From an uncultured Bacilli bacterium (GTDB taxonomy: Bacteria > Bacillota_I > Bacilli_A > Izemoplasmatales > UBA1188): a DNA stretch of 64,000 nt. Both the position numbers and the translations under genes were made by a program. Position 1 is the stretch's first letter. Each line of letters begins with the position of its first letter. The notes under the pieces are model-generated. The model was not told the origin of the DNA, made no database searches, and saw only the letters and a list, made by a program, of their open reading frames with translations. Shown here in pieces: positions 5,741 through 34,133 of this stretch. The DNA is taken from the NCBI GenBank assembly GCA_905235635.1, contig CAJOMC010000002.1, positions 12,067 to 76,066 on the forward strand. The letters run 5' to 3'.

Positions 5741-7279
5741 TTATGCCTCCTCTTTGAGTAGTCCACTTATATAATTATACACATCTAAATCTATTTCTTT
5801 AAAGTATTCTTTTAACTTTGTTAAAAATAGGGTCTTATTTGTGTATTTAAGTTCATTAAATGAGTCACATATTGTATTAATGACAGTAAAATCTATTTCA
5901 TTAGGTAAAGCTTCCTCAATCTCACTAATAAATACATTAGACATTACGTTTTCCGTAATAATATCTAAATATTCATTTTCTTTTACCATTAATGTGTCAT
6001 CTTCTAAAGAATTATATTCAATACTTAAATCTTTAAGTAATTTTTCTAAACCAATATTATAGTCAGAGGATAGATTAATCCCATACTCACTTAAGATGTC
6101 CTTTATATATTTAAACATCTCTTTATCTCTTATCGATAGATAGTCATAAGGACTCTCTGTTGGATCCACCCCAATATATAAAGTATTAAGTGTAAGAATA
6201 TTATTATCTTCTTTAAACTCTAAATCTAATGATATATATTTAGTAAAAATATGATAGATAATATTCATTAAATAAGTATCATTATTTTTTGAAATATAGA
6301 TGGATTCTATTGTGATTTCATTAAATGAAGCGGGATTAGGATTTATTTCACCAAGTATATCAAGATAGATAACGCTATTTAGTAAATCGCTAGTTATAGG
6401 GATATTCTCACCTTTTAATAAGTAATTTACTATGGATTTATAATTTATATCCTTCGCTATTATTTCATCTATGTAATAATTATTTCTAGTATTGCTTGAG
6501 ATAAGAAGCTTAGTGTAATCTAAGCTAAAATAAATCTTTCTATCGATATTTACTTTAAGAAGATTGTTGTTTGAAAGGATTATGAGGAGTGATGAGATAG
6601 CCTTTCTCATCTTAGGGTAATCACCTATTAGTATATCCCCTATAATTCCATCTCCTATATTCTCAAACAGGTCCTTCTTTCTAATAGTAACTGAAACATC
6701 GGAAGCATCTACCCTTCCAAATTTTAATGTTTCAAGAGCCTGTGAAATAATTTGTCTAAGCGAACCTTCGTTATCATTTTCAATAAGCGCTTTAGTAAAT
6801 GAGGATGGGATAAGGATAGACCCAATATTCGCCCTTGATAGTTTTAAGATAAATTCTGTATCAGTGACATCTATTGTGAAATATGCAGATATCTTAATAG
6901 AATAATTTAAAAGATGTTTATAGGAAAGATGAAAATTAAAGACGATATAGTTTTTTAGGATCCTTAAGGTAACACCTTTTAATGCCCACTTGCTGGTTTC
7001 ATAAATATATTCGTTATTATAATCAATTGAATTAAATATAATTTCATTTAATGTGTCACTATCAAACTCAATTGACATTACATTTAGACTCACTGATTTT
7101 TCTATTTCTTTTACAAGTATCTCCTCAAACGTTTCACTATATGAAGAGTTAGTATTATCTCTTCTATATTTCTTCTTAGGAGTAAAGTCGTAAGTTAGGA
7201 AAAAGAAAAGAAACGCTAATAGAATTATAGCGAATAATATATATGAAATTATCTTAATTGCCTTATTCTTAAAAATCAT
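5741..7279 (-). CDS. Hypothetical membrane-anchored protein (single N-terminal TM)
   Basis: 512-aa ORF. It has an N-terminal hydrophobic helix (IISYILFAIILLAFLFFFL). Its start overlaps the tsaD stop as ATGA. No recognisable catalytic motif. Confidence 0.5.
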   Translation of the reverse strand: MIFKNKAIKIISYILFAIILLAFLFFFLTYDFTPKKKYRRDNTNSSYSETFEEILVKEIEKSVSLNVMSIEFDSDTLNEIIFNSIDYNNEYIYETSKWALKGVTLRILKNYIVFNFHLSYKHLLNYSIKISAYFTIDVTDTEFILKLSRANIGSILIPSSFTKALIENDNEGSLRQIISQALETLKFGRVDASDVSVTIRKKDLFENIGDGIIGDILIGDYPKMRKAISSLLIILSNNNLLKVNIDRKIYFSLDYTKLLISSNTRNNYYIDEIIAKDINYKSIVNYLLKGENIPITSDLLNSVIYLDILGEINPNPASFNEITIESIYISKNNDTYLMNIIYHIFTKYISLDLEFKEDNNILTLNTLYIGVDPTESPYDYLSIRDKEMFKYIKDILSEYGINLSSDYNIGLEKLLKDLSIEYNSLEDDTLMVKENEYLDIITENVMSNVFISEIEEALPNEIDFTVINTICDSFNELKYTNKTLFLTKLKEYFKEIDLDVYNYISGLLKEEA

Positions 7280-8265
7280 AAATCAAGTCTAGATGATGCC
7301 TTTAAGGACATATCGTCAATTAGTCCTTTCTTTATCTTATAATAGGCACTGATGCCTATCATTGCGGCATTATCACCACAATATTTTGTCTTAGGGAATG
7401 TGACTATCACCTTATTTAATTCATTTAAGAATCTATTTCTAATGACACTATTTGCGGCACTCCCTCCGACAACAAGAACTTCTTTTACTTTATATTCTTT
7501 AATAGCTTTTTTAACCTTATAAATTAATACATCAGTGACAGCTTCTTCAAAACTTCTTGCGATATCAGAGTCACTATATGGTTCACCCGATTCTTCTAAA
7601 TCTTTCTTAAGTTTTGTGACTGCGGTCTTAAGACCTGAAAAACTAAAGTCATAGTTAGGTGAATATATCATAGGGCGAGGAAGATTATAGATATCTTTCC
7701 CATCTTTACCTATTTTATCAAGAAGTGGACCTCCAGGATATGGAAGACCCATTATGCGGGCGGCTTTATCAAAAGCTTCACCTACTGCATCGTCAGTGGT
7801 CGAACCAATCTTTTTAAATAAATAATCTTCATTCATAATAACTATTTCTGTGTGACCCCCAGAGATAATAAGTGCAAGACATGGGAATGATACATCATGT
7901 TCTATCATTGAGGCATAAATATGTCCAGTTAAGTGGTTTACCCCAACAAGTGGTTTAGATGAAAAGAGCGAAACTGTCTTTGCGGCATTAATGCCAGTTA
8001 AAAGGGAGCCAATTAAACCAGGTCCTTCAGTTACAGCGATATAATCTATTTGATCAAGAGTAACACCTGCGTCTTCAAGTGCTTTTTTATATATTAATGT
8101 GATTCCTTTTACGTGTTCACGTGATGAAATCTCAGGAACTACTCCACCATATTCCTTAAATATATCTATTTGAGATAAAACTTCATTTGAAAGAACATAT
8201 TTACCATCTTTTGTGACTGCACAACTAGTTTCATCACATGATGATTCAAAACTTAGTATTAACAT
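7276..8265 (-). CDS. tsaD: tRNA N6-adenosine threonylcarbamoyltransferase TsaD
   Basis: ILSFESSCDETSCAV, the GVNHLTGH metal motif and GGSAANS. 329 aa. Confidence 0.92.
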   Translation of the reverse strand: MLILSFESSCDETSCAVTKDGKYVLSNEVLSQIDIFKEYGGVVPEISSREHVKGITLIYKKALEDAGVTLDQIDYIAVTEGPGLIGSLLTGINAAKTVSLFSSKPLVGVNHLTGHIYASMIEHDVSFPCLALIISGGHTEIVIMNEDYLFKKIGSTTDDAVGEAFDKAARIMGLPYPGGPLLDKIGKDGKDIYNLPRPMIYSPNYDFSFSGLKTAVTKLKKDLEESGEPYSDSDIARSFEEAVTDVLIYKVKKAIKEYKVKEVLVVGGSAANSVIRNRFLNELNKVIVTFPKTKYCGDNAAMIGISAYYKIKKGLIDDMSLKASSRLDL

Positions 8266-17252: not shown

Positions 17253-17327
17253 TGGAGCCTCAGAACGGAATCGAACCGTCATCCTCTGCTTGGGAAGCAG
17301 GAGTAATGACCATTATACTACTGAGAC
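17253..17327 (-). tRNA. tRNA-Gly (anticodon CCC), CCA encoded
   Basis: The reverse complement folds as a cloverleaf. Acceptor stem is GTCTCAG/CTGAGGC. Anticodon stem is CCTGC/GCAGG with loop TTCCCAA. The T arm carries GGTTCGATTCC. Discriminator is U, followed by CCA. Confidence 0.85.
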
Positions 17328-26399: not shown

Positions 26400-26472
26400 T
26401 CGGAATGGTGAGACTCGAACTCACGACCTCTAAGTCCCGAACCTAGCGCGCTACCACCTGTGCTACATTCCG
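26400..26472 (-). tRNA. tRNA-Pro (anticodon CGG), CCA not encoded
   Basis: The reverse complement has acceptor stem CGGAATG/CATTCCG with a C1:G72 pair, and discriminator A. The anticodon loop is TTCGGGA. The T arm carries GAGTTCGAGTCTC. Confidence 0.85.
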
Positions 26473-27653: not shown

Positions 27654-29149
27654 ATGACTAAGGAAGAAATATTAAAGAAAGCAGAATACTACTCAACGTT
27701 TGATAGATCATGCTCATATATACTACAAGTATTTAACTATGATAGGGCAACTATTGCGCCAAAAGGTGGCGCAATGGAAGGGAATGAAGCATTAAGCTTC
27801 GTTTCTAATGAAGTATATAAGGTATATAAGAGTGACGATTATAAAGAATTTGTGGTCGAAGCATATAATAAAAGAGATGAGTTTAGTGAACCTTATAAAA
27901 GACTCTTTGAACTCAAATATAAATCACTAAAAGAAAGTGAAAATCTTGATTCTGAAACAAACTACAAGTTACAACTAATCTTTTCAAATGGTAATACTAT
28001 TTGGGAAGAAGCTAAAGAGAAGAATGATTATTCAATCTTTAAAGATGCATTAAAAAATATTATAGAGGCTTTAAAACTAATAGTGGATTTAAAACCTACT
28101 AAATTTAAGAATCCATATGATAGTCTTTTAGACCAATATGAAGAAGGATTAAATGTAGATATACTTGATAATTTCTTTAATAAGTTAAAAGAAAGAATAG
28201 TACCTCTTCTTCAAAAGATAATGAAATCAAAGAAGAAAATTAGAACTGATTTTTTATCGAGAGTTGTGTCAAAAGATATCCAACAAAAAATATCTTATGA
28301 ATTACTTAAGTTTAATGACTTTGAGTTTTATCAGAATCAGAACATCCATTTACCTGTTTCCCAAGCCACCACGACGTAATAGTTACAACTCACTATTATG
28401 AAGATAGTTTTGCGTCAAATATATATTCAGTAATTCATGAAGGTGGACACGCCATATTCGCTCAAAATGAACCTGATTTATTCTATGAAATTGGTCTCGC
28501 TGGCTCAATGAGTATGGGAGAGCATGAAACAATTTCAAGGTTTTATGAAAATATAATAGGTAGAAGTAAAGAATATACTGATCATATATACGACATTATT
28601 AATAGTATCTATCCTGAACTTTTAAGTGATGTATCTAAAACTGAATTCTTTGAAGCCGTTAACGTTTCTACGCCATCACTTATAAGAACTGAATCTGATG
28701 AATTAACTTATTCTCTTCACATCATGATTAGATATGAGTTAGAAAAAGCTTTAATTAACAATGAGATTACTGTGGATAATGTAAAAGATGAATGGAATCG
28801 TCTATATAAAGAATATCTTGGTGTAGATGTTACATCTGATAGGGAAGGAATCTTACAAGATATGCACTGGAGCGATGGAACTATAGGATATTTCCCAACA
28901 TATGCACTAGGCAATGCATATGGTGCACAAATCCTTAATACTATGAGAAAAGATATAGATCTTGAAAAAACACTTAAAAATGGGGATTTAAAGATAATTA
29001 AGGAATGGCTTAAAGAACACGTGTTTAAATATGCATCTCTTCTTAAACCTAGAGAATGGTTATTAAAAATAACCGGCGAAGAATTAAACCCTGATTATTT
29101 CCTAGATTACTTGGAAAATAAATATTCAAAGCTATATGATCTAAAATAG
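27654..29149 (+). pseudogene. M32 (Taq-type) carboxypeptidase interrupted by a -1 frame change in a T4 run
   Basis: Two ORFs (27654-28379 and frame-shifted 28325-29149) together give a full M32 protein. HPFT and the HEGGHA zinc motif lie in the second frame upstream of the track ORF. The frames switch at TTTT 28326-28329. Confidence 0.8.
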
Positions 29150-29241: not shown

Positions 29242-29268
29242 GGGGCAAAATTGCCCCTTTACTTTTAA
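29242..29268 (+). terminator. Intrinsic terminator after the carboxypeptidase locus
   Basis: GGGGCA aaat TGCCCC followed by TTTACTTTTAAT. Confidence 0.65.
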
Positions 29269-29401: not shown

Positions 29402-31786
29402 ATGTTAAGAGTTAGGAAAAGAAATGGCAATATCGTTTCTTTCGATATTGCAAAAATTGAAAGTGCTCTTAAGAGAGCATTCGAAGACGTTAGAAAAGAA
29501 TCATCTAAGGATGTTATTGAACTACTTGCCTTAAGAGTAGTATCAAATTTCCTAGGTAAAACCAAAGATGGCATTATTGGTGTTGAAGACATCCAAGATA
29601 GCGTTGAGGTTGTGCTTATTCAAGCTGATTTCGCAGATGTTGCTAAATCTTACATTTTATATAGAAAACAACATGAAAATATTCGTCAAGCAAAGTCGAC
29701 TCTTTTAGACTACAAAAATACAGTTGATAACTACTTAAAGATTGCTGACTGGAGAGTTAAAGAAAACTCTACAGTTACATATTCAGTAGGTGGTTTAATA
29801 TTATCTAACTCTGGTGCTATTACTGCTAACTACTGGTTAAGTGAAGTATATGATGAAGAGATAGCTAACGCTCATAAAAACTGTGATATCCATATCCATG
29901 ACTTATCTATGCTTAGTGGATACTGTGCAGGATGGAGCTTAAAACAATTAATTAAAGAAGGTCTTGGTGGTGTTCAATCTAAGATATCTTCTACTCCTGC
30001 ATCTCACTTATCCACTCTCTGTAACCAAATGGTTAACTTCCTAGGTATTATGCAAAATGAATGGGCAGGCGCACAAGCATTCTCTTCTTTTGATACTTAC
30101 CTCGCACCTTTCGTTAAAGCAGACAACCTAACATATAAAGAAGTTAAACAATGTATCCAATCATTTGTGTATGGTGTTAATACTCCTTCTCGTTGGGGTA
30201 CACAAGCTCCATTTACTAATATCACTTTAGACTGGGTAGTTCCAAATGATCTAGCTGAACTTAACTGTATAGTGGGTGGCAAGGAACAAGACTTCAAATA
30301 TAAAGATTGTGTTAAAGAAATGGCTATGGTTAATAAAGCCTTCATTGAAATAATGATTGAAGGCGATGCTAATGGTAGAGGTTTCCAATATCCAATCCCA
30401 ACATATTCAATCACAAGAGATTTTGATTGGAGTGATACAGAAAACAATAGACTTCTATTTGAAATGACTGCGAAATATGGTACACCATACTTCTCAAACT
30501 ATATTAACTCTGATATGGAACCAAGCGATGTTAGATCTATGTGCTGTAGACTACGTCTTGATTTAAGAGAATTAAGAAAAAAGAGTGGTGGCTTCTTCGG
30601 TTCAGGTGAATCAACTGGCTCAATTGGTGTAGTTACAATCAACATGCCAAGAATTGCATATCTATCAAAAGATGAAGATGAATTCTATGAAAGATTATCT
30701 AAGTTAATGGACTTAGCTGCTAAATCATTAAAGATAAAGAGAACTGTGGTCACAAGTTTACTTGAATCAGGATTATATCCTTATACTAAGAGATATCTAG
30801 GCACCTTCAACAACCACTTCTCTACAATTGGACTTGTTGGTATGAATGAAGCTTGTCTTAATGCTAATTGGATTAGAGAAGATTTAACTAATGCTAAAGC
30901 ACAAGAATTCACTGAGAATACATTAAATTTCATGAGAAATAAATTATCAGATTTCCAAGAAAAATATGGTGATTTATATAACCTTGAGGCAACTCCAGCT
31001 GAATCAACTGCTTATAGACTTGCGAAACATGATAAGGAAAAGTATCCAAACATCATCACCGCAACTTCTCCAGATAATACTCCATATTATACTAACTCAT
31101 CACATCTCCCTGTATCTTATACAGAAGATGTGTTCAGCGCTCTTGATATTCAAGATAGATTCCAAACTCTTTATACATCTGGAACTGTATTCCATACATT
31201 CCTAGGTGAAAAGATGCCAAGTTGGGAATCTACTGCAAAGCTAGTTAGAACTATCGCTAATAACTATAAACTTCCATATTTCACTTTATCACCAACTTAT
31301 TCAGTATGTCCTGAACATGGATACATCACTGGTAAGATGGACACATGTCCACTTTGTGGTAAAGAAACTGAAATATATTCAAGAATTACTGGTTACTATA
31401 GACCTGTTAAAAACTGGAATGCTGGTAAAACTCAAGAATTCAAAGAAAGAAAGACATATGACGCTATAGGATCTCTAACTAAACACAGAGAGAAGGAAGA
31501 TAAAATTTTAACTGAAGTAGAGGATAAATCTAATATTGATGCATGTACTATCAATAAAGAGATTCTTCTCTTCGTAAGAAAAGATTGCCCTAACTGTATG
31601 ATGGCTGAAATGATGCTTGATAGAGCTCATATCCAATATAAGGCCATAGATGCTGAAGAAAATGTTCAAATGACTAAATCATACAATATTACATCAGCAC
31701 CTACAATGGTAGTTCCTGGAAGCGAAAACTTAAAAGTATTTGAAAATGCTTCTAATATTAAAAGATATATTGAAGAGAATAGATAG
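29402..31786 (+). CDS. nrdD: Anaerobic ribonucleoside-triphosphate reductase (class III) with N-terminal ATP-cone and C-terminal fused thioredoxin-fold CxxC domain
   Basis: ATP-cone start MLRVRKRNGNIVSFDIAKI. SMCCRLRLD finger-loop region. Zn ribbon CPEHG..CPLCG. Glycyl-radical motif SRITGYYRPV. An extra ~110 aa follows, with LFVRKDCPNCMMAE. Confidence 0.9.
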   Translation: MLRVRKRNGNIVSFDIAKIESALKRAFEDVRKESSKDVIELLALRVVSNFLGKTKDGIIGVEDIQDSVEVVLIQADFADVAKSYILYRKQHENIRQAKSTLLDYKNTVDNYLKIADWRVKENSTVTYSVGGLILSNSGAITANYWLSEVYDEEIANAHKNCDIHIHDLSMLSGYCAGWSLKQLIKEGLGGVQSKISSTPASHLSTLCNQMVNFLGIMQNEWAGAQAFSSFDTYLAPFVKADNLTYKEVKQCIQSFVYGVNTPSRWGTQAPFTNITLDWVVPNDLAELNCIVGGKEQDFKYKDCVKEMAMVNKAFIEIMIEGDANGRGFQYPIPTYSITRDFDWSDTENNRLLFEMTAKYGTPYFSNYINSDMEPSDVRSMCCRLRLDLRELRKKSGGFFGSGESTGSIGVVTINMPRIAYLSKDEDEFYERLSKLMDLAAKSLKIKRTVVTSLLESGLYPYTKRYLGTFNNHFSTIGLVGMNEACLNANWIREDLTNAKAQEFTENTLNFMRNKLSDFQEKYGDLYNLEATPAESTAYRLAKHDKEKYPNIITATSPDNTPYYTNSSHLPVSYTEDVFSALDIQDRFQTLYTSGTVFHTFLGEKMPSWESTAKLVRTIANNYKLPYFTLSPTYSVCPEHGYITGKMDTCPLCGKETEIYSRITGYYRPVKNWNAGKTQEFKERKTYDAIGSLTKHREKEDKILTEVEDKSNIDACTINKEILLFVRKDCPNCMMAEMMLDRAHIQYKAIDAEENVQMTKSYNITSAPTMVVPGSENLKVFENASNIKRYIEENR

Positions 31787-31789
31787 AAA

Positions 31790-32686
31790 ATGAAATACGA
31801 TTCAATAGTAATCGGTGCTGGGGCTGCAGGTATGACTGCAGCCTTAAACATCTTAAGAAACGGAAAAAGTGTATTAATAATCGAAAAAGAACAGATTGGT
31901 GGTCAAATAGCCTCTTGTCCTAAAGTAGAAAATTTCCCTTCTATCAAAGAGACATCAGGTGTAGCGTTCTCTACTAACCTTTTTAACCAAGTAATGGCTC
32001 TAGGCGCAGAATTTACGCTTGAAGAGGTATTAGAGGTTAAGAAAGAGAGTGATGAATCATTTATCGTAACAACTGACTACGCTACATATATAGGTCGCAC
32101 CGTCATAATCGCAACTGGTGCTTCTCATAATAAGATAAATAAACCTGGTGAAGAATTAAAAGGTGTATCCTACTGTGCCCTATGTGATGGTCCATTCTAT
32201 AAGGGTGAAGATGTTGCGGTAATTGGAGATGCGAATACCGCACTCCAATACGCGATACTTCTATCAGGCTATGCAAAGACAGTTCACTTCTGTATGTTAT
32301 TTGATAGATTCTTTGGAGATAAGATATTAGTAGATAGACTACTTAATATCCCTAATGTAAAGATATATAAAAATATCTCCCTTGAAGAAATGAAGGGAGA
32401 TAAGAATCTATCATCATTGCATTTCATTAACACTAAAACAAATGAACCATTTGATTTAGATGTTAAGGCATGCTTTATCGCAATTGGTGAATCACCAAAA
32501 ACTGAAGTTTTTAAAGATTTAGTTGATAGAGATAGAAACTATATTCTAACTAATGAGAATATGGAAACTAAAACTAAGGGATTATACTGTATAGGAGATG
32601 TTAGATCTAAACAAGTTAGACAACTAACTACTGCCTGTAGTGATGCGGCAATAGCTGCATTCAATATATCTAAGAACTTATCTTAG
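31790..32686 (+). CDS. Thioredoxin-reductase-like flavoprotein lacking canonical NADPH-binding motifs
   Basis: FAD motif IVIGAGAAGMTAA and redox CALC (compare CATC). GDANTA replaces GGGNSA/GGGNTA. MLFDRFFG replaces HRRDxFRA. Confidence 0.75.
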   Translation: MKYDSIVIGAGAAGMTAALNILRNGKSVLIIEKEQIGGQIASCPKVENFPSIKETSGVAFSTNLFNQVMALGAEFTLEEVLEVKKESDESFIVTTDYATYIGRTVIIATGASHNKINKPGEELKGVSYCALCDGPFYKGEDVAVIGDANTALQYAILLSGYAKTVHFCMLFDRFFGDKILVDRLLNIPNVKIYKNISLEEMKGDKNLSSLHFINTKTNEPFDLDVKACFIAIGESPKTEVFKDLVDRDRNYILTNENMETKTKGLYCIGDVRSKQVRQLTTACSDAAIAAFNISKNLS

Positions 32687-33378
32687 TATCCTCTTAGGCG
32701 AACATCATTCACATATTCTTCTAAAATGTGCTTGTATTCAAGCACTTTTTTATTATCTACTGGGTGTAGTGCCTTATTAGGTACATATTCAGATATTTCA
32801 AACTTTTGAAGGAATAATACTCTTGCACCCTTAATAAATTCACCAATACCTCTAATATTGTCTTCTTTATGATATTCATCTATTAGAGTAGTCCTAAACT
32901 CATATGGGAATGAATGATCTAAAAGATATGATACTGATTCTTTGAAGGGCTCCATATTAAGGTTAACTCTACCAGTGATATCCGAATATGAATCAGGACT
33001 ATTTTTTATATCTATTGCGACATAATCAATTAAGTTATTCTCAATTAATTCTTTTAACATTTTAGGGTTAGAACCATTAGTATCAAGCTTAACTTTATAT
33101 CCAAAAGATTTAATCCATTTAATAGTTTCTGGTAGATCTTCATATAGTGTTGGTTCACCACCCGTAATTACAACACCAGTTAATCTATTTTTATGTGATT
33201 CTAAAAACTCTTCTAATTCTTTATTATCTATTGCATCTTGATTATAGACACTATCTTCTACTAATTCATAGTTATGACAAAAAGGGCATCTTAAATTACA
33301 CCCTTTAGTAAAGAGTGTACAAGATACTTCAGAGTCATAATCAACAAGCGATAGTTTTTGAATACCATAAAATTTCAT
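32683..33378 (-). CDS. nrdG: Anaerobic ribonucleotide reductase activating protein (radical SAM)
   Basis: CNLRCPFCHN (CX3CX2C) and GGEPTL. It is convergent with the nrdD module. Confidence 0.85.
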   Translation of the reverse strand: MKFYGIQKLSLVDYDSEVSCTLFTKGCNLRCPFCHNYELVEDSVYNQDAIDNKELEEFLESHKNRLTGVVITGGEPTLYEDLPETIKWIKSFGYKVKLDTNGSNPKMLKELIENNLIDYVAIDIKNSPDSYSDITGRVNLNMEPFKESVSYLLDHSFPYEFRTTLIDEYHKEDNIRGIGEFIKGARVLFLQKFEISEYVPNKALHPVDNKKVLEYKHILEEYVNDVRLRGY

Positions 33379-33488: not shown

Positions 33489-34133
33489 TTATATAATTTG
33501 TTCCTCTTCTTCTATTTCATCTTCGATTAATGTATTGTCATAAATCATGCCGAGAAAACTATTCTTTAGGAATGAAGTTTTATACCTTCTCGATAACATC
33601 ACAATAACTGGTAACATTAACGCCATTATCACTATATTTACTGCGGTTGATGGGAGGACATAAGATACATTATAAATAATACCTTCAAGATATGTTACCT
33701 CATAAAACAACATAGAGTTAATACTAGATGATAGTATTCTGAGTAGACCTTGTAACGCAATCATAAGCGCTAGTACCACAAAAGAAAATACCACATTTAA
33801 CTTTTCCTTACTTGTATACATGTTAAATATAGGTTTAGCCACAAGGCCTAATATAGCGGTTAAGCCAAATGGTATTAAATAATCAAAGACAAAGAACGCT
33901 ATTCCATATGCATCTATTACCGCAGTTATAATGCTATAGATGATACCACTTGCGATAAAACCTTTAATTGGTCCATGTCTTAATGCCACAATAAATAGTG
34001 GCACCATAGAGAAATTAATAGAACCTCCTGTTGAACCTATTGGTATTTTAACGAATGTATCAAGTACTATCGCAAGTGCGGATAATACACCTATTTCTGT
34101 AATCTCTCTTATTGTAAATCTACTATTATTCAT
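33489..34133 (-). CDS. thiT: Thiamine transporter, ECF S-component ThiT
   Basis: 214 aa, polytopic. The N-terminus NNSRFTIREITEIGVLSALA resembles ThiT. A TPP riboswitch lies directly upstream. Confidence 0.75.
   Translation of the reverse strand: MNNSRFTIREITEIGVLSALAIVLDTFVKIPIGSTGGSINFSMVPLFIVALRHGPIKGFIASGIIYSIITAVIDAYGIAFFVFDYLIPFGLTAILGLVAKPIFNMYTSKEKLNVVFSFVVLALMIALQGLLRILSSSINSMLFYEVTYLEGIIYNVSYVLPSTAVNIVIMALMLPVIVMLSRRYKTSFLKNSFLGMIYDNTLIEDEIEEEEQII

Follow-up and report, generated by a model that had tools for sequence, protein, structure and literature searches.

How does an anaerobic ribonucleotide reductase (RNR) have its active site reduced again when its own polypeptide ends in a redoxin-like domain and the next gene encodes a thioredoxin reductase (TrxR) homolog whose NADPH-binding motifs have been replaced? 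This question is posed by positions 29402-33378 of a 64,000-nucleotide stretch of DNA from an uncultured Bacilli bacterium (GenBank assembly GCA_905235635.1, contig CAJOMC010000002.1, positions 12,067 to 76,066), which is called the window below. We consider it reasonably likely, from sequence comparison, that the locus encodes a dedicated disulfide relay, in which electrons would pass from a non-NADPH donor to a flavoprotein, from the flavoprotein to a redoxin tethered to the class III RNR NrdD, and from the redoxin to the NrdD active-site disulfide. The domain architecture, the motifs, their conservation and the gene linkage behind this reading are direct observations. A preliminary description of 29402-33378 had reported the open reading frames (ORFs), a CPNC motif at 31586-31597, a CALC motif at 32174-32185 and the altered NADPH motifs; all of these were confirmed in position, the two CxxC motifs to the nucleotide. 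The locus is laid out as follows.

29242-29257, forward strand: terminator-like hairpin closing the gene upstream of nrdD (sequence)
29402-31786, forward strand: nrdD, class III RNR with a C-terminal redoxin, 794 aa (ORF; Pfam NRDD and ATP-cone; NF006126)
31790-32686, forward strand: low-Mr (low molecular mass) TrxR homolog with a remodelled NADPH site, 298 aa (TIGR01292, PDB phmmer, AlphaFold2, Foldseek)
32683-33378, reverse strand: nrdG, radical-SAM activase, 231 aa (TIGR02495, 198.6 bits against a cut-off of 131)

The nrdD gene ends in a TAG stop codon (31784-31786), which is followed by the three nucleotides aaa and then by the ATG of the TrxR-like gene. nrdG is convergent with the latter, and the two stop codons overlap by 4 nt. 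Since the hairpin at 29242-29257 ends the upstream gene, nrdD begins a new transcription unit, and this hairpin together with the 3-nt gap makes it most likely that nrdD and the flavoprotein gene form a single transcription unit, in which the translation of the two would be coupled.

The NrdD part of the fusion protein carries the following elements.

29408-29677, forward strand: ATP-cone, residues 3-92 (PF03477, E 4.5e-22)
29924-29926, forward strand: Cys175, on strand beta-A after Tyr174, equivalent to Cys125/Tyr124 of Thermotoga maritima (alignment to 4coi)
30539-30550, forward strand: finger loop Met380-Cys381-Cys382-Arg383, double-cysteine type, equivalent to SCCR 328-331 of T. maritima
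30986-30988, forward strand: Glu529, corresponding to Glu495 of T. maritima, which is proposed to donate the proton in redoxin-type NrdD (alignment)
31307-31357, forward strand: zinc ribbon C636-P-E-H639...C649-P-L-C652 (sequence; aligned to the T. maritima Zn site)
31379-31402, forward strand: glycyl-radical motif RITG664YYRP, invariant in 121 aligned tails and 69 full-length fusions

Pfam NRDD (PF13597) covers residues 121-686 (E 1.8e-192) and NCBIfam NF006126 reaches 1124 bits (cut-off 548). With an NRDD barrel, a glycyl-radical motif, a zinc ribbon and a cognate NrdG, the protein has the complete set of class III elements, and the earlier statement that NrdD is intact, from ATP-cone to zinc ribbon and radical motif, is borne out by Pfam, NCBIfam and alignment. 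Residue equivalences were taken from a residue-level alignment to the T. maritima structures 4coi/4u3e. The four motifs GYCA, SMCCRL, NLEAT and TGYYRP are unchanged in all 69 full-length fusion homologs recovered from genomes.

Class III RNRs have been sorted by these same active-site columns (Burnim et al., PMC9669993). In that scheme MGCR without Glu marks the formate type, a Met-free double-Cys loop together with Glu the 'thioredoxin only' type, and a QCCR/A loop without Met or Glu NrdD3; the Met-containing double-Cys NrdDs, which are the majority of double-cysteine enzymes, form a larger group that has the components for either reductant and whose actual reductant is left unresolved there. 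The window NrdD falls into the group with a Met-containing double-Cys loop and Glu. Its loop reads MCCR and Glu529 is present, so that it has only the Met in common with formate-type NrdD1. The double cysteine and Glu of NrdD2 (C381-C382, E529) occur in 69/69 fusions, all of which also keep the finger-loop Met380 that NrdD2 in the strict sense lacks, and MCCR with Glu529 does not match the QCCR/A loop, free of Met and Glu, of NrdD3. Judged by these subtype residues, whose alignment had been called for in the preliminary description, the active site is of the double-cysteine, redoxin-capable type and not of the formate type.

Some NrdD-glutaredoxin (Grx) fusions carry inteins (database homologs P0287, 1041 aa, and P0354, 1608 aa). 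One of these inteins lies within the catalytic finger loop (...DVR[AS]MC-PL[RS]G...VTHN-CRLRLDL). If the intein begins at a canonical Cys1, splicing would give the loop SMCRL, which has one Cys; MCCR would require an intein starting with Pro.

Beyond the radical domain the polypeptide continues into a linker and a small domain.

31448-31558, forward strand: charged linker, residues 683-719 (about 37), predicted to be flexible (pLDDT about 48-60; 43% charged)
31559-31783, forward strand: glutaredoxin/NrdH-like thioredoxin-fold domain, residues 720-794 (75), with cis-Pro motif A-P-T (AlphaFold2, Foldseek, profile, PF00462)
31586-31597, forward strand: C729-P-N-C732 of the redoxin domain (sequence)

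That this extension is a thioredoxin-fold redoxin, as had been suspected, was supported by structure prediction, fold comparison and profile searches. AlphaFold2, run with a 121-sequence alignment, predicted residues 720-794 with pLDDT 88-96 and in the beta-alpha-beta-alpha-beta-beta-alpha order of glutaredoxin/NrdH. Foldseek against the PDB returned thioredoxin-fold proteins exclusively (target-normalised TM 0.5-0.72), among them Thermosipho africanus Trx1 (6mos) and the thioredoxin chain of a B. subtilis RNR complex. The Pfam glutaredoxin profile PF00462 scored 20.6 bits on the tail within full-length NrdD, under the Pfam cut-off of 22.9, and 25.1 bits on the isolated 76-aa domain, which passes it; 25 of 25 homologous tails matched this profile (best E 3.4e-12). 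When a profile of the tail was run against the PDB, the matches ranked from Pyrococcus/Aquifex PDO/glutaredoxin-like proteins (E 1.5e-10) through glutaredoxin, small archaeal thioredoxins and B. subtilis TrxA to NrdH, NrdH-redoxins appearing only at E about 1e-6 (1.5e-6). Of these, PDO, archaeal thioredoxins and NrdH are redoxin types reduced by TrxR-family enzymes. The domain has the fold topology of a glutaredoxin/NrdH-like redoxin, with the CxxC at the start of helix 1 and the cis-Pro before strand 3. NrdH-redoxins proper carry the motifs CVQC and WSGFRP; assignment to that family was rejected, as the tail has CPNC, lacks WSGFRP and scores 17.2 bits with TIGR02194 against a cut-off of 85.75. 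We conclude that the tail is a minimal glutaredoxin-like redoxin.

Conservation extends to the redox motif and its position. The 121-sequence tail alignment shows no variation at either Cys or at the Pro of CPxC, and at least 90% conservation of the Asn and the A-P-T motif. In 69 sequences the first CPNC cysteine follows the radical Gly at a distance of 59-70 residues (median 62), which suggests selection on tether length.

The redoxin family of the fused tail also has a free-standing member, of 83 aa, which lies together with the TrxR-like gene directly after it in 171-622 of a 622-nt metagenome contig (L092). The 170 nt upstream of this redoxin do not encode an NrdD C-terminus, so the redoxin-reductase pair also exists unfused. 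An apparent 'split' NrdD with a free redoxin in L093 was rejected as evidence: the same 12 residues occur in both frames at the junction, a sign of misassembly or of a frameshift artefact.

The downstream gene encodes a flavoprotein with the following motifs.

31814-31831, forward strand: FAD-binding GxGxxG, G9-A-G-A-A-G14 (sequence; G9, G11 and G14 invariant)
32174-32185, forward strand: redox-active C129-A-L-C132 (both Cys invariant in 64 homologs; CA[VLTI]C in 120/120)
32225-32242, forward strand: G146-D-A-N-T-A151 in place of the pyrophosphate motif GGGxxA (alignments)
32294-32317, forward strand: M169-L-F-D-R-F-F-G176 in place of the 2'-phosphate motif HRRDxxRA (alignments)

This protein aligns end to end with low-Mr TrxRs (best PDB phmmer match 7jyp, E 2e-52). 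Its AlphaFold2 model has a pLDDT of 93.6 and matches many TrxRs in Foldseek at TM 0.83-0.88 (0.86 to 7jyp; 0.86-0.88 for 7jyp and 3f8p). The FAD GxGxxG, the second-domain CxxC and the overall fold are those of a low-Mr TrxR. The TrxB equivalog model TIGR01292 gave 279.9 bits, below its cut-off of 343.45, and the GGGxxAxE and HRRDxxR of NADPH-dependent TrxB are replaced by GDANTALQ and MLFDRFF. Thus M. mazei 4zn0 reads 'vavvgggnsa...vylvhrrdhlkaarvl' where the window protein reads 'vavigdanta...vhfcmlfdrffgdkil', and the NADPH-dependent S. pyogenes enzyme 5uwy reads 'llvvgggdsa...vtvvhrrdqlraqkil'; in the printed alignment GGGNSA ... HRRDHLKAARVL of 4zn0 stands opposite GDANTA ... MLFDRFFGDKIL of the window. 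In terms of E. coli TrxR, we take the replacements to be G154 to Asp147, G155 to Ala148, H175 to Met169, R176 to Leu170, R177 to Phe171 and R181 to Phe175, with D178 unchanged as Asp172.

The altered motifs are themselves conserved. GD[AG]N[TS]A and [TMA]LFDx[FYLW]F[GAC][DE] each occur in 118 of 120 database homologs (53-95% identical); G146, A151 and Y154 are invariant, and conservation is at least 90% at D147, N149, L152, Q153, L170, F171, D172 and F175. The GD[AG]N group forms one clade by neighbour-joining. Because the new motifs are near-invariant throughout it, the NADPH site is, on the alignment, remodelled under a clade signature and not decayed. The alignments to solved enzymes show that the NADPH 2'-phosphate site itself is lost, and the earlier claim that this TrxR homolog lacks both NADPH motifs is borne out.

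Placement relative to the FFTR and TRi enzymes was judged from bit scores and motifs. Membership in the FFTR group, which had been entertained, was rejected on similarity: phmmer gave 83.6 bits with the C. acetobutylicum FFTR (6gna) and 114 with 5j60, against 160-181 for Firmicute NADPH enzymes. TRi enzymes carry TQ/NGK for HRRD together with GEGxxAxN, and the window clade has [TM]LFD and GD[AG]N[TS]AxQ at these places. Since the similarity to FFTR lies far below that to Firmicute NADPH enzymes, the flavoprotein appears to descend from a Firmicute-type TrxR by yet another, independent remodelling.

A reductase variant with GGSDTA and 'MRR[ND]TYSP', carrying a 2-residue insertion and partly Arg-containing, was found at L005 6393-7299 and in P0172 and P0157. 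In the neighbour-joining tree it groups inside the GD[AG]N clade beside the window protein; it may have reverted, may retain the ancestral state or may owe its place to an artefact of the tree.

How widespread is this arrangement, and how tightly are its parts linked? One genome per species was scanned, and 80 loci were retained for study. The NrdD-redoxin tail is encoded in at least 237 species-level genomes, mostly of uncultured gut and rumen Bacilli (RF39/'Candidatus Enteromonas', Erysipelotrichaceae), with Sharpea porci and Lactimicrobium massiliense among the cultured carriers; implausible taxonomic labels of some carrier bins (e.g. Paludibacteraceae, Slackia) are probably binning errors. 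In a 90%-clustered protein collection, 431 proteins matched at E <= 1e-3, and 187 clusters at 50% identity were obtained at E <= 1e-10. Recurring in hundreds of independent genomes and metagenomes, the fusion architecture is not a chance feature.

The survey of co-occurrence that the preliminary description had proposed revealed tight linkage. Among the 77 loci with enough downstream sequence, which make up the informative set from species-representative genomes, a TrxR-type gene lies no more than 200 nt 3' of nrdD-grx in 63, and 54 of those 63 also have a convergent nrdG, the same arrangement as in the window. A reverse search that started from divergent TrxR-like homologs gave the same picture, all five lying directly after a glutaredoxin-like domain. 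For four of the five this domain belongs to a complete NrdD-Grx gene amid unrelated flanking genes, and the TrxR-like gene sometimes overlaps it; the fifth upstream gene is cut by the contig end. When all 839 genes of the 80 loci were clustered, nrdD, nrdG and the reductase gene alone recurred in most loci, the next families being present in 34 and 32. Of the small ORFs that lie between the reductase gene and nrdG, those of four loci were inspected and none encodes a redox protein, and the 53-aa ORF after the reductase gene of L088 has no Cys.

In five loci (L041, L056, L058, L061 and L074, at about 6380-7330) the position of the reductase is taken by another TrxR lineage, about 40% identical, which keeps GGGNSA; the gene order there is nrdG, nrdD-grx, trxR. 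Its 2'-phosphate motif is the canonical HRRD in L041 and VRKD, VRAD, HNLD or QNLS in the rest. The canonical GGGNSA/HRRD TrxR at L041 speaks for a neighbour whose role is reduction of the fused redoxin, and the range from HRRD to QNLS provides a natural series for the study of cofactor switching.

As a separate observation, the upstream activase of some reductase-less Erysipelotrichaceae-type loci (Lactimicrobium massiliense, Solobacterium-like) is itself a fusion, of an N-terminal MarR winged-helix with NrdG, 380-417 aa in length (L077 2868-4046; L022 2880-4025; L043 2772-4025).

We propose that the parts work together as follows. Turnover would leave the double-cysteine NrdD with a disulfide between Cys175 and Cys381 or Cys382, Glu529 serving as proton donor. 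The enzyme's own C-terminal glutaredoxin-like domain, swinging on its flexible linker of about 37 residues, would re-reduce this disulfide through Cys729/Cys732, and the FAD/CxxC flavoprotein encoded by the next gene would re-reduce the tethered redoxin through Cys129/Cys132. That the flavoprotein reduces the redoxin and the redoxin the NrdD disulfide is strongly supported by the fusion, the operon structure, the conservation and precedent; the direction of electron flow, and the idea that the tethered domain itself reduces the active site, are what we infer from them. The FAD would most likely be reduced by a source other than NADPH, since the Arg-rich 2'-phosphate pocket is lost and Asp and usually Ala replace two glycines. 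NrdG requires a low-potential one-electron donor, so that a low-potential carrier must exist in carrier cells. Our best guess for the donor is a ferredoxin or flavodoxin, the kind of donor that NrdG also needs. The DvTRi and FFTR precedents for such motif losses make a non-pyridine donor the best guess, and the relay may be independent of all pyridine nucleotides.

Each component has a known relative, and the logic of donor, reductase, redoxin and class III RNR is known from two systems. Wei et al. are said to have described the thioredoxin-dependent class III RNR NrdD2 in 2014 (PNAS) and, in 2015 (Biochemistry), reportedly M. barkeri NrdD3 with an operon-encoded NrdH and a ferredoxin:disulfide reductase. 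The window enzyme resembles NrdD2 in its double-Cys loop, its beta-A Cys after Tyr and its active-site Glu (E495 in T. maritima, E529 here), and also in its proposed reduction by a thioredoxin-fold protein that is recycled by a TrxR-family flavoenzyme. It differs in its MCCR loop, with Met kept, from the SCCR of NrdD2, and in having the redoxin fused to its C-terminus and a reductase in the same operon that has lost the NADPH motifs. According to what is stated in PMC9669993, PMC4493059 and PMC9176816, the NrdD2 enzymes of Neisseria bacilliformis and T. maritima are thioredoxin-dependent and were assayed with free Trx/TrxR/NADPH. The M. barkeri system, as cited in PMC9176816 and PMC5704485, is a ferredoxin-fed, pyridine-nucleotide-independent redoxin relay into a class III RNR and likewise has a glutaredoxin-like redoxin dedicated to, and encoded with, the RNR. 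Its QCCR/A loop lacks Met and Glu (PMC9669993), in contrast to the MCCR and Glu of the window enzyme; its redoxin is separate, and its reductase is reportedly [4Fe-4S] FTR-like rather than a flavoprotein.

Fusion of a redoxin to an RNR also has a precedent. In the Grx-ATP-cone-NrdB protein of Facklamia ignava the Grx part has been demonstrated to function as a reductant (PMC6187632). Here too a physiological redoxin is covalently joined to an RNR component; the F. ignava protein differs in being class I, with the redoxin N-terminal on the radical subunit and of glutathione type (CxxC, GrxC family). Table S1 of the same paper lists a single 'Glutaredoxin:NrdD', from Lachnospiraceae bacterium TWA4 (subclass NrdDd), with no partner reductase noted. 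That screen of RefSeq used a Pfam Grx cut-off of 21.5 bits, which the window tail, scored in the full-length protein, misses at 20.6; the sub-cut-off score probably explains why no more than one Grx:NrdD fusion was listed. The preliminary description had recognised no described system in the combination; no description of the pairing with a reductase devoid of NADPH motifs was found in the literature searched, and the fusion as such has this one earlier listing.

The flavoprotein, too, has counterparts. FFTRs are ferredoxin-reduced TrxR homologs (PMC8154056), and DvTRi, with its GEGxxAxN and TQ/NGK motifs, does not accept electrons from NAD(P)H, its donor being unknown (PMC5627308). Like other NAD(P)H-independent TrxRs (FFTR, Desulfovibrio TRi, Thermoplasma TR, methanogen DFTR; PMC8154056, PMC5627308, PMC10880999), the window protein keeps FAD and CxxC and has lost both NADPH motifs. 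With DvTRi it shares an acidic residue in the glycine motif (GEG), and many members of its clade share the Thr. It is set apart by GD[AG]N[TS]AxQ with [TM]LFDxFF instead of the TQ/NGK of TRi and by its context, which indicates a family dedicated to an RNR-fused redoxin and not to a general thioredoxin. The closest solved relatives of both halves come from thermophile pairs of a PDO or glutaredoxin-like protein with a TrxR (Pyrococcus 1A8L/1J08, Aquifex 2AYT, Sulfolobus TrxR-B3 3F8P, Thermosipho Trx1 6MOS and TrxR 7JYP). Unlike the module described here, these are free-standing general disulfide systems, with PDOs of two Trx-fold units, and are unlinked to NrdD.

Several observations count against the proposed relay. 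Fourteen of the 77 informative loci, of Erysipelotrichaceae type and with nrdG upstream, have no adjacent reductase. Scans of the window for ferredoxin (CxxCxxCxxxCP) and thioredoxin/glutaredoxin CxxC motifs found no linked donor, and ferredoxin and flavodoxin motif scans and gene clustering yielded no donor candidate in the 80 loci. About 25 of the 120 clade members carry GDGNTA, formally still GxGxxA, and the conserved Asp172 corresponds to the Asp of HRRD; because of these two features a pyridine nucleotide, NADH especially, could still bind the flavoprotein. The closest solved homolog, 7jyp, likewise has no HRRD but keeps GGG, and a literature search found no paper on its cofactor use. On the NrdD side, Met380, which is needed for formate chemistry in E. 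coli NrdD (PMC9669993), is kept, and with this Met of the formate-type loop the enzyme could in principle, by its sequence, use either reductant.

The alternative that survives best retains the same relay with an ordinary feed. The flavoprotein would then take hydride from a pyridine nucleotide, most likely NADH, and the loss of the arginines would reflect a switch from NADPH to NADH. We consider this rather unlikely, although it draws on much of what was just listed: the GxGxxA kept as GDGNTA in a subset, the lack of HRRD in 7jyp, which is the best match in both structure and sequence, and the failure to find a linked protein donor. The whole pseudo-NADPH Rossmann domain is also kept (pLDDT above 90). 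Against a switch to NADH, most members have Ala where GxGxxA has its second glycine, position 2 is Asp throughout, and the three Arg positions are now conserved Leu, Phe and Phe, not small or polar residues. NADH-specific relatives such as AhpF have Glu at the position held in the GD[AG]N clade by Thr or Met, neither of which is acidic. NADH-preferring TrxRs do exist, DvTR3 and that of Thermotoga being examples as cited in PMC5627308. According to the same paper, NAD(P)H does not reduce DvTRi, whose glycine motif carries a comparable acidic residue. For the relay with a non-pyridine donor as first put forward in the preliminary description, the redoxin, the active-site type, the reductase and the linkage have stood up; pyridine independence and a ferredoxin/flavodoxin donor are conjectural.

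It is improbable, in our judgement, that formate is the turnover reductant and that redoxin and reductase serve to rescue oxidised active-site cysteines (e.g. after oxygen) or to gate activity by redox state. This idea is favoured by the presence of the MxCR-loop Met380 in 69/69 fusions and by the finding that such enzymes hold components for either reductant (PMC9669993). However, two hallmarks of formate-independent reduction, Glu529 and the second Cys of the finger loop, never vary, the tether between the radical Gly and the CxxC is kept within narrow limits of length, and a dedicated reductase in more than 80% of loci would be a heavy investment for repair; the window, only 64 kb long, contains no pyruvate formate-lyase. 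Finally, that the flavoprotein, a full-length TrxR homolog with all disulfide-reductase elements, is merely the cell's general thioredoxin reductase, left beside nrdD by inherited synteny without functional meaning, is very hard to believe, since the adjacency persists across divergent lineages with wholly different flanking genes, is seen from both search directions and holds for the second TrxR lineage as well.

The genomic setting of the locus is unremarkable. The window has a G+C content of about 30%, and its genes are of ordinary chromosomal kinds, among them ligA, an ATP synthase operon and those of the arginine deiminase pathway; the closest relatives of the locus are found in uncultured Bacilli from rumen and gut. 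An NrdR-box pattern, ACACNANNTNTNGTGT, sought upstream of nrdD with 3 mismatches allowed, gave 203 matches against 174 +/- 16 expected and was set aside as uninformative. An Rfam scan of the window detected no riboswitch or other RNA near the operon; its matches were RF03531 and two tRNA genes, at 2253-2340, 17256-17327 and 26400-26472, all on the reverse strand. RF03531 ('C. difficile sRNA included into helicase gene'; 68.3 bits, cut-off 65.2) lies inside a PcrA/UvrD-like helicase ORF. Just upstream of nrdD, an M32 (Taq-type) carboxypeptidase gene is split into two forward-strand ORFs (27654-28379 and 28508-29149), which span PF02074 positions 14-220 and 283-489; about 60 middle profile positions are absent, and the gene is probably a pseudogene. 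Adjoining nrdG on its other side, at 33489-34133 on the reverse strand, is an ECF-transporter S component whose best NCBIfam matches, the thiamine ThiT/YuaJ and riboflavin families, are both sub-cut-off; no evidence was found that ties this gene to flavin supply for the reductase.

In the literature searched, we found no description of a C-terminal redoxin tether on NrdD as a large conserved family, of a redoxin fusion on an MCCR+Glu enzyme, of the near-obligate pairing of such a fusion with a dedicated TrxR paralog, or of an NADPH site replaced by conserved GD[AG]N / LFDxFF motifs. We tentatively put forward a bolder version, which we think possible: that the reductases form a new RNR-dedicated, pyridine-nucleotide-independent disulfide-reductase family fed by NrdG's flavodoxin/ferredoxin, that the whole would be a module without formate or NAD(P)H, widespread in gut and rumen Bacilli, and that the MCCR+Glu group may be redoxin-driven.

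Class III RNRs are classed by their reductant, which is formate, thioredoxin or NrdH. The widespread fusion of a Met-containing double-Cys NrdD to a redoxin, accompanied by a dedicated reductase, argues strongly on genomic grounds that a redoxin is used, and the locus supplies a ready-made three-protein system for experiment. If the proposal is true, the fusion would be a 'Rosetta stone' that marks the large MCCR+Glu class III group as redoxin-driven. The reductase represents another, apparently independent, lineage of TrxR homologs with a rebuilt and conserved NADPH site; as its new residues are conserved and the context makes its physiological substrate plain, the search for what feeds it electrons is tractable. 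The finding bears on DNA-precursor synthesis in reduced-genome anaerobes, the abundant and mostly uncultured gut and rumen Bacilli (RF39/'Enteromonas'-like bins, Erysipelotrichaceae).

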